A stretch of DNA of 64,000 nucleotides from Chromatiales bacterium (GTDB taxonomy: Bacteria > Pseudomonadota > Gammaproteobacteria > Poriferisulfidales > Oxydemutatoraceae). The translations under genes and the position numbers were made by a program. How positions within the stretch are numbered: position 1 is the first letter of the stretch; each line of letters begins with the position of its first letter. The stretch lies in NCBI GenBank assembly GCA_014323925.1, contig JACONC010000003.1:73-64072 (forward strand), written 5' to 3'. The notes beneath the pieces are model-generated. The model was not told the DNA's origin. It did not search any database and saw only the letters and a program-made list of their open reading frames with translations. This document shows positions 2,480 through 11,447 of this stretch, piece by piece.

Positions 2480-2743
2480 TTAGCTCTTTAAAGAAATTTC
2501 TCTATCGCCTCGAACTCTAACGAGTAAGTGTTCGTCACAGAATTTAGCTGTTTTCAGAGGAACTCTACTGCCCGGAATCTCGACAAGGACAGGCTGCATG
2601 CCAATTGCAACCACTTGGCATACACATGATACGATGCTATTTATTCTCGTCGTCTTGGGAAGGATATACATATTGTTGACGAGACCGTCCTTCTCCTTGC
2701 CCACCGCGCGTCTGTCGACTATCTTGTACCGATACCTGAACAT
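2480..2743 (-). CDS. sctQ: Type III secretion SctQ C-terminal-like / FliN-like SpoA domain protein (short)
   Basis: 87-aa ORF. VVAIGMQPVLVEIPGSRVPLKTAKFCDEHLLVRVRGDREI resembles the SpoA (surface presentation of antigens) fold of FliN/YscQ C-terminus. Located downstream of sctP as in ysc operons. Overlaps the sctP 3' end by ~100 nt, so the true start may be internal. Confidence 0.5.
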   Translation of the reverse strand: MFRYRYKIVDRRAVGKEKDGLVNNMYILPKTTRINSIVSCVCQVVAIGMQPVLVEIPGSRVPLKTAKFCDEHLLVRVRGDREISLKS

Positions 2744-3422
2744 TCTCGCTAGTCAATCGCTCGCCTAACAATTTTTGTATATCAGACTGCTTTTGTTGTA
2801 TCAGCATTTGGCTATCTTGGGAGGAAGTTATAAACTCAACTTGAAGGCGGCCGGCGTGCCGGTAGATACGCACTTCGGTATTAGGTAATACCGATTCTTT
2901 TAGCTGTATACGAATTTCTTGCCCGCCGGCAGGATTGTTGTCCGGAGTAGAGACCAGTATACGATTGGCAATTTCACTAGCAACATTATTGATATCCGCA
3001 GGCGGTGGCTGTGTGTTTTGTACTGTAGGCGCAATATCTTGTTGTAACGGCTGGCTTTTGGCAACTATCGCGGCGATATCAAATGTGTCCAGGCTTTGCG
3101 GTAAATCATCTTTGCCCGCGGCTGCGGATGACTTAGATTTATCCGACTGCCTATTTGCTGTCGGATGCTGTTCGGTATCTTTATTTTTTGTCGCTTTGCT
3201 GACCTGTTTTAACTGCTCAGCGGCGGTTTTATCAGAAGATTTTTTCGTGTGTGGTTTAGATTTAGAATGTTTGCTTAATACTGGCTGTTCTTTTTTCCCT
3301 TTTTTATGCAACAAAGATGAGAATTCTTGTGATGCCTCTTGCGATACGGTGCTGGCATCAGGTTGCTTAGATGAAGCCTGGGTAGTTTTTTTATCGCTAG
3401 TCGGGGGAATGCCTTTAATCAT
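2637..3422 (-). CDS. sctP: Type III secretion needle-length/substrate-switch protein (SctP/YscP/FliK-like)
   Basis: 261 aa with a low-complexity K/S/Q/P-rich central region. The C-terminal domain (...EIRIQLKESVLPNTEVRIYRHAGRLQVEFITSSQDSQMLIQQKQSDIQKLL) is typical of the FliK/YscP T3S4 domain. Position after sctN-sctO matches ysc order. Confidence 0.55.
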   Translation of the reverse strand: MIKGIPPTSDKKTTQASSKQPDASTVSQEASQEFSSLLHKKGKKEQPVLSKHSKSKPHTKKSSDKTAAEQLKQVSKATKNKDTEQHPTANRQSDKSKSSAAAGKDDLPQSLDTFDIAAIVAKSQPLQQDIAPTVQNTQPPPADINNVASEIANRILVSTPDNNPAGGQEIRIQLKESVLPNTEVRIYRHAGRLQVEFITSSQDSQMLIQQKQSDIQKLLGERLTSENVQVSVQDSRQTRGGQGEGRSRQQYVYPSQDDENK

Positions 3423-3895
3423 GGTCGGTGCACAGTATGCAGGTTGAATTCTTCCGCTTCCAATTCTTCGCGTCTTTCTTTCTCTTTATTCTCCGTAGTT
3501 GCAATGATGTTTTTATATTCCTCGTATTTTTGGGTTGTTTTATAAGCATCCATCCGCGCTTCTTTGGCTTCCGCGAGACGCTCATTCGCATCTGTCACTG
3601 CTGCTTCGGCCTGTTCTATCTCTTCTTTTAGTTTTTGCTGCTTTTCTTGGAATGATGTTATTTGATCCCTCATAGTGTTGAGATTATAAGCGTGAACTGT
3701 CTTATTCAAAACCTCTGCATACAGTCGCTGCTCCTCAGCTTTGCGCCACTCTATATAATGATCGTGCTTGATAACTTTACGCTCTAAATCCTTTCTACAC
3801 TGCTCAAGTTGCAACTGTTTCTCGTTCATTGCTTGTATCGCGGCGTCCTCCCTTATTCGTTTTACGCGTAGCAATTCGTCTATTAACAATAGCAC
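3419..3895 (-). CDS. sctO: Type III secretion stalk protein SctO (YscO/FliJ-like)
   Basis: 158-aa all-coiled-coil protein. The N-terminus LLRVKRIREDAAIQAM...HDHYIEWRKAEEQRLY parallels YscO (LHRVKVLRVERAEKAI...QDYHLWRIDEEQRLF). Translationally coupled with sctN and sctP (1- and 4-nt overlaps). Confidence 0.65.
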   Translation of the reverse strand: MLLLIDELLRVKRIREDAAIQAMNEKQLQLEQCRKDLERKVIKHDHYIEWRKAEEQRLYAEVLNKTVHAYNLNTMRDQITSFQEKQQKLKEEIEQAEAAVTDANERLAEAKEARMDAYKTTQKYEEYKNIIATTENKEKERREELEAEEFNLHTVHRP

Positions 3896-5166
3896 TATAG
3901 TGTATCTCCTACAACCTCTTCTAGTGCTTCCAGAACCTGCTGCAGAGTAAATACTTCGTCGGTTGCTTGCGTTAAGAAATCGTTGATATGATCGATTTTA
4001 GCTACCGCTTCATCAGCTACTTCGTCGGCTCCCTCTTTATATTCTCCTATCTTAATCAACAGCTCCACTTCCTTATATTTAGCAAGCAGCTCACGCATTC
4101 GTCCGGCCATTGCTATATGTCTCTTATCAGCGATGTCACTCATCACGCGACTAACACTCGCCAATACATCCACCGCAGGATAATGATTGGCACTCGCCAA
4201 CTGGCGCGACAATATGATGTGCCCATCTAGTATCGAGCGGGTTTCATCGGCAACCGGTTCGGTCATATCATCACCTTCTACGAGCACTGTATACAGCGCA
4301 GTAATTGAACCTTTATCGGATTGGCCGGCGCGCTCCATTAGTTGTGGTAAAGTTGCAAAAACCGACGGTGGGAAACCGCGCCGGGTGGGTGGCTCACCAG
4401 CGGCTAAACCGATTTCGCGTTGCGCTCTGGCAAAACGAGTAACTGAATCCATCAAAAATAAAACCCGCTTGCCTTGATCTCTGAAATACTCGGCAATTGC
4501 AGTTGCCACATAGGCTGCCTTGACGCGCTCCATAGATGGACGGTCAGATGTTGAAACCACGACAACCGAATGTTTAAGATTCTCCGCACCAATGTCACGC
4601 TCTATAAATTCCCTCACTTCACGCCCGCGCTCACCAATTAGAGCAAGCACTGTTACATCAGCATCTGCGCTTCTAACAAGCATTGACAGAAGGGTACTTT
4701 TGCCACCGCCGGCGGCAGCGAAGATCCCCATTCTTTGTCCTTCTCCGCAGGTTAATAATCCATCTAGCACCTTTAATCCCATCGGCAAAGGCTTATCGAT
4801 GATTTTTCTTTTCATCGGCTCAGGTGGGTCGGCATAAACTGGATAAAAAGTAGAAGTCTCTAATGGGGGGCCGCCGTCAGAGGGGCGGCCGAGACCATCA
4901 AGCACCCGTCCTAAAACCGCCGCACCCACCGGCACCCGATGTGAATGTCCGCTTGGGTAGACTTGCGTGCTGTTGGAAACACCTAGCATATCACCCATCG
5001 GCGTCAACAACACTCGCCGGTCTTCAAAACCAATGACTTCAGCCATCAAAGAGCCTTTCTCACCAGGATTGCGCAATGTGCATAACTCGCCTATTTTGAC
5101 ACCCGGCACCACGGCGCGTATTAGGGTGCCAGTCACTTCCAATACGAAACCACGTACACCAAGCAA
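3895..5166 (-). CDS. sctN: Type III secretion ATPase SctN (YscN/FliI family)
   Basis: 423 aa. Walker [10 protein letters not shown]1/FliI-like catalytic core (…[12 protein letters not shown]…, [25 protein letters not shown]). Size and neighbours (sctL upstream, sctO downstream) fit the injectisome ATPase. Confidence 0.9.
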
Positions 5167-5240
5167 TTCGGTGTGCTTGATAGTATCCTCAAGTGCTTCG
5201 GTTATATAATTAAAGCCGGTATTAATATCGTCCCTCTCTA

Positions 5241-10376: not shown

Positions 10377-10808
10377 TTATTGTTGCTTGAGCAAGGAGTC
10401 AATATCTTTAGATGCTTTACCAATGGTCGCAGATACTACGCTTTCTTCAGCACCCAGTTTGGTGACCCTTATGTTCAGTCTCACTTCTTCGGAGACACTC
10501 ATTGGGTCTGAGTGTTGATTCAGTGCTTCCACCGCTGTTTTATCCTGCCCCATGCTCTCCAGCTTATCTAAGATTTGCTCGCCAGGAGATTTAACTGATT
10601 GACAGTCGTTTACTTTTTCAGTGGCATCCTTGGCCGAAACTCCTTGCACCTGTTGACTGTTTTGCTCTCCGCTAGCCATCTGTTCCTGAAACGCCTTTAC
10701 ATCTTCCGGATTGGCACCATCTTTTTGGGCAACTTGTTTCTCAGCTCGCTCTTGTATCTTGTCAATCAGATGCTGCTGCAAATGCAAATTATCAAGTCCC
10801 ACAACCAT
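10377..10808 (-). CDS. Putative T3SS inner-rod protein (SctI-like) or small T3SS-associated protein
   Basis: 143 aa, Gln-rich, helical. C-terminal ...GKASKDIDSLLKQQ resembles the conserved C-terminal helix of inner-rod/needle family proteins. Lies between the needle gene and sctJ as yscI does. Confidence 0.3.
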   Translation of the reverse strand: MVVGLDNLHLQQHLIDKIQERAEKQVAQKDGANPEDVKAFQEQMASGEQNSQQVQGVSAKDATEKVNDCQSVKSPGEQILDKLESMGQDKTAVEALNQHSDPMSVSEEVRLNIRVTKLGAEESVVSATIGKASKDIDSLLKQQ

Positions 10809-10809
10809 G

Positions 10810-11208
10810 CTATTTGCCCTCTAGCTGTTCTAATAGTTTATTGGCTAAATCGATTGCGTCGGTATTGCTATCATTACTTTCCGCAACTAATGCTTTGAGT
10901 ACTTGTTGGCTTTCCGAGGAGCGTTTAGCAATATACAAGCATAAGCCCAAAAAAGCCCGACAGACTGATGGCCCCGAACTACCTGATATGTTATTTTTCT
11001 TAAGAAAATTAACCGCCTCTTCGGGATCATCGTCGCAATTTAGATAGACCATAGCCTCTCCTATAATACTCGCTGGGCTCTGCGGACAAGCAATGCCTGT
11101 CGCTTTAAAAATAGCAAGTGCATAATCCTTAAAAGCCGGCCATCTGCAGGCAACCATGCCTAGCTGCGTGGCGTAAGCTAACGCTTCTCTTTTATATGTC
11201 AATGCCAT
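10810..11208 (-). CDS. Putative T3SS needle-subunit chaperone (YscG/PscG-like helical TPR-like protein)
   Basis: 132-aa helical protein directly downstream of the needle gene with a 1-nt gap, as yscG follows yscF. Assignment by position and predicted helical/TPR-like character only. Confidence 0.3.
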   Translation of the reverse strand: MALTYKREALAYATQLGMVACRWPAFKDYALAIFKATGIACPQSPASIIGEAMVYLNCDDDPEEAVNFLKKNNISGSSGPSVCRAFLGLCLYIAKRSSESQQVLKALVAESNDSNTDAIDLANKLLEQLEGK

Positions 11209-11225
11209 AACTCTGCCAGCCTGTA

Positions 11226-11447
11226 CTACATGCGCTGGGTTATATTATCAACCATCTTTTTAACCGAAGATACCAAAGCGGACAGTGTCTCTACATCCAT
11301 AGAATACTTGCTGTATTCCATGTTTAATTTCATCATATCTGCAGTATTAGATGGATCTATGGTCTTTGTCATAGAGTCTATTTTTTTTTGCTCATCGCTA
11401 ATGTGGGTACCAATACCTCTAGCAGCACTATCTATGTCTACAGCCAT
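11226..11447 (-). CDS. sctF: Type III secretion needle filament protein SctF (YscF/PrgI/MxiH family)
   Basis: 73-aa two-helix protein. The C-terminal half DMMKLNMEYSKYSMDVETLSALVSSVKKMVDNITQRM follows the needle-protein pattern (compare PrgI ...LAAYQSKLSEYNLYRNAQSNTVKVFKDIDAAIIQNFR). First gene of the minus-strand T3SS operon, divergent from dnaA. Confidence 0.6.
   Translation of the reverse strand: MAVDIDSAARGIGTHISDEQKKIDSMTKTIDPSNTADMMKLNMEYSKYSMDVETLSALVSSVKKMVDNITQRM

Follow-up and report, generated by a model that had tools for sequence, protein, structure and literature searches.

The window analysed here (the whole stretch of 64,000 nucleotides, from a metagenome-assembled genome (MAG) named Chromatiales bacterium) carries on its minus strand, from 11447 down to 2637, an operon that is a genuine sub-cluster of a Ysc-family T3SS (type III secretion system). 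It consists of 11 co-directional genes, all of full length, which overlap or are spaced by at most 75 bp. From the sequences of this operon and of two further contigs it appears very likely that the MAG encodes a complete, scattered and functional injectisome of the Ysc family. The window operon would then be one of three dispersed modules (four or more in some relatives) that together make one machine. It would contribute the needle and its YscG-like chaperone, the inner rod, the SctJ ring, the SctK/L/N/O platform-ATPase complex, SctP and a class I chaperone. The second contig would add the export gate, the gatekeeper and SctQ, and the third the secretin, SctD, YscE and the translocon and tip. 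The arrangement would go back to an ancestral cluster with the order F-G-I-J-K-L-chaperone-N-O-P-Q-R-S-T-U-translocator-W-SycN-STAS-X-Y-V, which rearrangement would have broken between P and Q and between U and W. The genes of the window operon, and one open reading frame (ORF) at its end, are as follows (coordinates are positions in the window):

11226..11447, minus strand: sctF, needle subunit, 73 aa; PF09392 E 2.7e-6, 27.9 bits against a gathering score of 29.4
10810..11208, minus strand: tentative YscG/CdsG-like needle chaperone, 132 aa; NCBIfam CdsG E 2.3e-5, far under the cutoff
10377..10808, minus strand: tentative sctI-like inner rod, 143 aa; PF17001 E 2.5e-3
9483..10304, minus strand: sctJ, inner-membrane ring lipoprotein, 273 aa; TIGR02544 225 bits, cutoff 162
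8824..9486, minus strand: sctK, sorting-platform protein, 220 aa; PF06578 YscK 56.9 bits, cutoff 22
8186..8827, minus strand: sctL, stator, 213 aa; NF005392 (PRK06937) 201.8 bits, cutoff 159; TIGR02499 126.8 bits
7727..8158, minus strand: CesT/YscB-like class I chaperone, 143 aa; PF05932 39.2 bits, cutoff 22
5241..7658, minus strand: sensor-HAMP-PP2C-RsbW-like kinase fusion, 805 aa; SpoIIE, HATPase_c_2 and HAMP domains
3895..5226, minus strand: sctN, ATPase; 423 aa from a TTG start at 5166, 443 aa from an ATT start at 5226-5224; PRK06936
3419..3895, minus strand: sctO, stalk, 158 aa; PF07321 YscO 83.5 bits, cutoff 28.8
2637..3422, minus strand: sctP-like needle-length/substrate-switch protein, 261 aa; PF09483 HpaP 42.9 bits, cutoff 23.8; weak FliK Flg_hook match
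2480..2743, minus strand: 87-aa ORF, earlier read as SpoA/SctQ, probably not a gene; overlaps the 3' end of sctP

SctJ, SctK, SctL, SctN and the YscO-like stalk all score above curated cutoffs, in line with the first-pass annotation of this DNA, which had read the lipoprotein as SctJ from its YscJ signature and lipobox. The lipobox (G21-C22) and the KVELYT that follows do not vary and are the same in AscJ; the protein also has a transmembrane segment at its C-terminus. The fliF model gives the same protein 50.8 bits, against a cutoff of 129.75. SctN reaches 757 bits with PRK06936 (cutoff 657) and 651 bits with TIGR02546 (cutoff 605), whereas every FliI equivalog model stays under its cutoff. 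The machine had been called non-flagellar, and this is upheld by the SctJ and SctN models that pass where the FliF and FliI models fail. The proposed FliK/YscP-like ruler likewise agrees with the HpaP match and the weak FliK hook-length domain.

The needle gene gives a weaker but consistent picture. The 73-aa product, previously taken for an SctF-like needle protein, falls just short of the gathering score of the needle family, and an SctI model scores about as well as the needle-family model. On the other side, a profile made from six SctF orthologues has most of its PDB matches among needle proteins (BsaL at E 9e-4, followed by YscF, PrgI and MxiH with E up to 0.9). A YscG-like chaperone gene lies directly after sctF, and a YscE-like gene is found in the third locus of the MAG. 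Orthologues of the YscG-like 132-aa protein occupy the same position in the related loci L002, L004 and L083-L085; its profile search against the PDB gave no meaningful match. The 143-aa sctI-like protein matches the C-terminus of AscI in tblastn (E 0.002) and has an orthologue in L083 (52% identity); a tblastn match of 24% lies at the corresponding position of L004. In the relatives L084-L086 no counterpart is found in the interval between G and J, which measures about 185-235 bp (4204-4397 in L084, 4763-4948 in L085 and L086). For these three genomes this means either a relocated inner rod gene or a protein that can be dispensed with.

Two genes of the operon had been passed over in the first reading, namely those for the CesT/YscB-like chaperone (7727-8158) and the 805-aa fusion (5241-7658). 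The former also matches TIGR02513 yscB (E 1.3e-7, under the cutoff), and a homologue is located between sctL and sctN in L002 and L004 as well. The start codon of sctN is probably the ATT at 5226-5224 rather than the TTG at 5166. The ATT is preceded by AGAGAGGGA; conservation with the 441-aa SctN of the relatives, including L083, extends over the 18 codons before the TTG; and a 443-aa SctN in NCBI (MBC6413689), encoded on the same 130,119-bp contig, falls in the 90% cluster of the window protein. A non-canonical start could point to low or regulated translation.

The 87-aa ORF at the end of the operon had been interpreted as a short SpoA protein. It has no Pfam match (E<=0.1), no match to an SctQ profile of 25 relatives and no homologue in any relative, and the gene caller left it uncalled on the identical ENA contig. 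The actual sctQ lies on the second contig, as two ORFs. Of the gene order that had been proposed, sctF-G-I-J-K-L followed by sctN-O-P-Q, the part from F to L and the N-O-P part hold, while the Q at 2480-2743 does not. Rfam, tRNA and repeat scans of the window gave nothing tied to the cluster, with no flanking repeats resembling insertion sequences, and in a promoter and terminator scan the promoter matches were at or under chance level.

The export gate, sctC, sctD and sctW had been reported as absent from the 64 kb, and this is confirmed by two types of search. The complete annotated Aeromonas Asc set gave zero tblastn matches for SctC/D/Q/R/S/T/U/V/W in the 64 kb, and with hidden Markov models (HMMs) of these proteins, made from as many as 26 relatives, the best E against the six-frame translation was 0.09. 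The window thus contains neither these genes nor remnants of them. No flagellar genes were seen among its translations, and the remaining large ORFs are housekeeping genes and a dsr operon.

Two further contigs of the MAG carry the missing genes. The window proteins are those of the NCBI MAG "Chromatiales bacterium" (locus tags GDA45_*, accessions MBC6413686-3748, on the 130,119-bp contig). The DNA is also present in the ENA assembly ERZ23486433 (sample label AGAR17-1_SAMN04939377), and the proteins also in JGI/IMG. With a full-length SctV as query, locus 2 was found (L088, scaffold_39 of ERZ23486433; also on a JGI contig), which encodes a 709-aa SctV with an FHIPEP domain (MBC6414228). Locus 3 (L092, scaffold_1 of the same assembly) was found with SctC as query (MBC6413333). 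Their gene contents are:

Locus 2, one strand, in order: 363-aa hydrophobic, weakly SseC-like protein; SctW (HrpJ+TyeA); SycN-like protein; STAS protein; YscX; YscY-like TPR protein; SctV
Locus 2, opposite strand: SctU, T, S, R and Q, with the export-gate domains Bac_export_2, Bac_export_1, Bac_export_3 and FliP
Locus 3, in order: three EspA-like proteins; LcrH-type TPR chaperone; SseC-family translocator; second TPR chaperone; CesT chaperone
Locus 3, continued: YscE-like protein (T3SS_needle_E); 709-aa protein without known function; SctC (Secretin); SctD (YscD domain)

SctU (MBC6414229), the STAS protein (MBC6414225), SctD (MBC6413334) and the SseC-family translocator (MBC6413328, named SctE by NCBI) are, like SctV and SctC, all labelled '[Chromatiales bacterium]'. 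The tag GDA45_00100 is found on the sctC contig, and GDA45_01960 and GDA45_02015 are among the window genes. Since the name, the accession block, the locus-tag prefix and the assembly ERZ23486433 are common to all three contigs, they can be assigned to one MAG, and with loci 2 and 3 supplying what the window lacks, every core injectisome component is present in it. The genome-wide search that the first-pass annotation had proposed, for sctC/D/R/S/T/U/V/W and translocon genes, thereby recovered all of them, and its suggestion of a machine split over several loci is borne out, both by the two further contigs and by the separate modules on closed chromosomes of relatives.

Two details of these loci deserve mention. 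The sctQ of locus 2 (15130-16522) is divided between two ORFs that overlap, one for the N-terminal part (275 aa) and one for the SpoA part (194 aa), and each of them matches the SctQ profile; this is either a split like that of HrcQA/QB or a frameshift. In locus 3 three tandem and nearly identical 181-aa genes (3006-4689), with a weak EspA-like match (E 7.6e-4), lie upstream of the translocator operon; they may be three copies of a gene for a tip or filament protein. In the NCBI assembly, which has a 56-aa fragment here, this region seems to be collapsed. Giant proteins with cadherin-like domains, which may be adhesins, are encoded within 10 kb of the sctW-sctV module, both in the MAG (6,415 aa; L088 1-656) and in a relative (3,717 aa; L091 20803-22130).

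Relatives were collected through the 90% protein cluster of the window SctN and are represented by chromosomes of 2.3-2.9 Mb that are closed or nearly so. Four of these assemblies contain the module F-G-(I)-J-K-L-chaperone-fusion-N-O-P, which always ends right after sctP. On the closed chromosomes the T3SS modules lie on one replicon, 100-280 kb or more apart. About 100 kb separate the first two modules in ERZ25067984, and on contig_2 of ERZ26051827 the three modules are found at 1.68, 1.40 and 1.90 Mb. On the latter contig sctV is followed by a gene of the IpgD family and not by sctUTSRQ, so that at least four loci are present there. The closed chromosomes share about 90% identity in SctN and 91-92% in SctV with the MAG, and their counterparts of loci 2 and 3 have an orthologous gene content. 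The split is therefore old and conserved across closed relatives.

The flanks of the module differ: in the relatives it is bordered by Cas6 and a cytochrome c gene, by hslVU and a gene with an NYN domain, or by Cas6 and an ORF of 2,910 aa. The adjacency to dnaA-dnaN, which had been emphasised before, does exist in the window. Since dnaA is a neighbour of the module in none of the relatives, this adjacency is without meaning. A reading of the module as origin-linked was dropped, as a search for DnaA boxes found no cluster between dnaA and sctF. In relative L084 an extra 100-aa ORF (7101-7403) is present between the chaperone and the fusion gene, with no family match and not a STAS protein by Pfam, and in one relative an Mpt_N-domain gene adjoins the third T3SS locus. 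The 2,910-aa ORF (L085 12645-21326) of a closed relative lies directly after sctP on the same strand and has no Pfam match; an 861-aa protein of the IpgD family of inositol phosphatase effectors is encoded after sctV in a closed relative (L089 12360-14945). Both are candidate effectors.

Comparison of the 11 window genes with those of L083 gave protein identities of 51-91%. The ratio of non-synonymous to synonymous substitution rates (dN/dS) ranged from 0.03 to 0.27 in ten of them, with dS of at least 0.95 and hence saturated; for sctO, dS was too saturated for the ratio to be computed. At saturated dS, these values argue for function and against decay. The T3SS closest to that of the window outside its own lineage, among the matches listed, is L004, from a MAG of Candidatus Oxydemutatoraceae, with an SctN that is 74% identical. 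Here a single contiguous cluster shows the order of locus 1 followed by that of locus 2, with the STAS gene between sycN and yscX. This contiguous order indicates that the arrangement in the window lineage arose by fragmentation of a contiguous Ysc-like cluster.

The 805-aa fusion protein may regulate the system. It combines SpoIIE (PF07228, 166 bits), HATPase_c_2 (PF13581, 50.6 bits) and HAMP (31.9 bits) domains. Two hydrophobic segments, at about residues 15-40 and 300-325, surround a domain of about 260 aa that is presumably periplasmic, and are followed by the HAMP, PP2C and RsbW-like kinase domains. The PP2C motifs GDVSGKG, YSDG and DD(M/I)T are conserved in seven homologues. The N-box DExxSNxxR and the G2 box GGxG of the kinase show conservation in orthologues as well. 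The best match in the PDB is the RsbU-RsbW fusion Rv1364c of Mycobacterium tuberculosis (E 1.9e-13). The gene has the same position in L083-L086, and two further MAGs of Gammaproteobacteria (L021 and L031) have a homologous fusion with conserved motifs immediately upstream of sctN. While the fused catalytic architecture is common, the sensor domain is common to only two library representatives among the matches listed. A single-sequence AlphaFold model of this domain had a mean pLDDT (predicted local distance difference test) of 40.6 and was unusable.

A putative partner of the fusion is the STAS protein of locus 2 (L088 8864-9241; PF01740, 61.5 bits), in which YVSSAGL is the kind of serine motif usual in anti-sigma antagonists that can be phosphorylated. 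Genes for STAS proteins are found repeatedly within related T3SS clusters. In Bordetella the PP2C phosphatase BtrU, the kinase BtrW and the STAS protein BtrV are all required for type III secretion (PMC7498569, PMC8256260). By analogy, the fusion and the STAS protein could form a Btr-like partner switch that carries its own periplasmic sensor. In answer to a periplasmic signal, the kinase domain would add a phosphate to the conserved serine of the STAS protein and the PP2C domain would remove it, and the phosphorylation state would tune secretion post-translationally. We infer with about even confidence that the two proteins work as a T3SS partner switch. More tentative still, and on balance doubtful, is the idea that a self-contained switch on one polypeptide, with a lineage-specific sensor, opens and closes the injectisome of a sponge symbiont post-translationally on a host-derived periplasmic signal, and that the fragmentation of the gene cluster is tolerated because regulation is post-translational.

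The MAG derives from a sponge metagenome, which agrees with the host-associated sulfur oxidiser that had been suggested from the sequence. Podell et al. 2020 (PMC7313196) describe only one Chromatiales MAG, SP5GCR1 from the sponge Lamellodysidea herbacea (1.62 Mb, 44.7% GC content, 28 contigs), and report a "complete T3SS" in it. The window MAG is very probably SP5GCR1, so that the presence of a T3SS has already been published, at summary level, for what is very probably the same MAG. That paper is silent on sulfur oxidation, split loci and partner switching, and nowhere uses the words sulfur, sulfide or dsr.

Several points weigh against the picture of a complete injectisome with its own switch. 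The assignments of SctF, the YscG-like and the SctI-like protein are all under curated thresholds, and the sctI-like gene is missing from its position between G and J in three relatives. No effector was identified in the window. The equation of the MAG with SP5GCR1 rests on name, size, GC content and sample label, and no accession in the paper confirms it. In the fusion protein the G1 box DxGxG of the kinase is not evident, and since this box is not clearly conserved, the kinase activity is uncertain.

A window without any export-gate, secretin or gatekeeper gene, in a genome of 1.6 Mb, a size typical of reductive evolution, could be taken for a decaying and non-functional remnant that persists after loss of the export gate and the secretin. 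This is very improbable and largely refuted, given that the missing genes are present in the same MAG, that 11 of 11 window genes are intact, that the dN/dS values are 0.03-0.27 at saturated dS and that the boundary after sctP has been kept in at least four genomes. The link between the three contigs itself rests on binning in a short-read MAG of 28 contigs, and they might in principle stem from different organisms of the sponge metagenome, which would leave only a partial system here; with all three modules on one replicon in the closed chromosomes of relatives, and with loci 2 and 3 orthologous to theirs, such an artefact is highly improbable. The notion of a fragment of a flagellar export apparatus draws on the homology of SctJ/L/N with FliF/H/I and on weak matches to FliH, FliI and FliK. 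It is refuted, and keeps next to no probability: the fliF score of 50.8 bits is far from 129.75, the FliI models stay under their cutoffs while the SctN models pass, and the MAG has the 273-aa lipoprotein, YscK and YscO along with a needle protein, a secretin, YscX/Y and translocators.

A different question is whether the injectisome works while the PP2C/kinase gene is an unrelated insertion, the STAS protein has other partners and there is no T3SS partner switch. The architecture of the fusion is indeed very common (9,602 library representatives at E<=1e-30, many of the best 150 covering both catalytic domains), in L004 a STAS gene is present while a fusion of this kind is absent from the 21 kb fetched, and the G1 box of the kinase is unclear. 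Still, the exact position of the gene has been kept in five assemblies despite protein identities of only 53-61%, with gaps of at most 75 bp in the window, and homologous fusions lie directly upstream of sctN in L021 and L031. Moreover, STAS genes recur in related T3SS clusters and Bordetella provides an experimental precedent. Taken together, an unrelated insertion seems unlikely, though it has to be reckoned with.

As a member of the well-known Ysc-type injectisomes the system is of low novelty, and the partner-switch pair embedded in the T3SS is an only mildly new feature. What is new is the map of three loci, the old and conserved split, the link of a T3SS with oxidative dsr genes and the sensor-fused Btr-like switch. 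A sponge-associated gammaproteobacterium with a reduced genome and dsr genes would keep a complete Ysc-type injectisome under purifying selection despite its scattering, which suggests that it manipulates sponge cells, or other eukaryotic cells, directly. The proposed switch, if correct, would be a compact and sensor-equipped version of the BtrU/W/V system of Bordetella and could help to explain how such switches control secretion.

The dsr operon of the window (25049-33279, plus strand) is of the oxidative type and has the order dsrA-B-E-F-H-C-M-K, plus a dsrL-like gene for an NAD(P)-binding Fe-S flavoprotein. The dsrABEFHCMKL operon of the earlier description thus holds for dsrABEFHCMK, with the L as a dsrL-like gene. 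No dsrJ, dsrO or dsrP follows it within the window. Four paralogous proteins of 349-367 aa are encoded on the plus strand of the window, one beside the sctP end of the T3SS module (1318-2367) and three in tandem directly after the dsrL-like gene (33829-34932, 34946-36049 and 36075-37145). The tandem three are mutually 70-71% identical and 38-41% identical to the first; none of the four has a Pfam or NCBIfam match or a homologue in the loci fetched from the relatives. At the edge of the window (25-504, minus strand) a 159-aa TPR protein contains three direct repeats of 102 nt (34 aa), and a homologous but much longer TPR array is found near the sctW-sctV module of relative L091.

Among the known systems the closest affinity is with the Ysc family (Yersinia Ysc, Aeromonas Asc, Pseudomonas Psc and Vibrio Vsc). 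In pairwise comparison SctN is 70% identical to AscN and VscN, SctJ 46-49% to AscJ, according to the method, and SctV 61% to AscV. YscK, YscO, YscX, YscY, SycN (with a weak Pfam match) and YscE- and YscG-like genes are present in the MAG, and the sub-orders F-G-I-J-K-L and N-O-P match, as does, via L004, the order N-O-P-Q-R-S-T-U. The MAG differs from the family in the distribution of its genes over three or more loci, the lack of a yscH/yopR-like gene between G and I, the fusion of HrpJ and TyeA in SctW, the two ORFs of SctQ, the PP2C/kinase gene in the operon, and a tip that is EspA-like, in three tandem copies, and not LcrV. L004 and L002, the latter from a Binatia MAG, are the closest relatives outside the lineage among the matches listed (SctN 74%). 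The order in L004 equals loci 1 and 2 of the window lineage joined, including the chaperone between sctL and sctN, whereas the clusters of both are contiguous and without the 805-aa fusion within the 21 kb fetched.

The first-pass annotation had compared the split to that of the Chlamydiae. The comparison is apt for the organisation, in that chlamydial T3SS genes also lie in several dispersed loci, with CdsG-like and CdsE/YscE-like needle chaperones and an Rsb-type switch with a membrane RsbU in the genome. It fails for sequence affinity, as SctN is 57-61% identical to the chlamydial proteins against 70-74% to Ysc-type relatives (among the matches listed), and the composition of the modules differs. 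From these sequence relations the likeness appears to be organisational only, and the scattering seems to have arisen here independently, from a contiguous Ysc-like ancestor.

In Bordetella, the SctN of the Bsc system is 69% identical to that of the window. Type III secretion there is likewise tied to a PP2C phosphatase, to a kinase of the RsbW type and to a STAS protein whose serine is conserved. Unlike in Bordetella, the phosphatase and the kinase are here fused to a periplasmic sensor with two transmembrane segments and to HAMP, inside the sctL-sctN operon; the STAS gene lies near sctV, and no sigma/anti-sigma pair like BtrS/BtrA was seen. Finally, Rv1364c of M. tuberculosis and SypE of Vibrio fischeri have other sensor domains and no tie to type III secretion, whereas they share with the 805-aa protein the union of PP2C and RsbW-like kinase in one polypeptide, which in both acts on a STAS domain.

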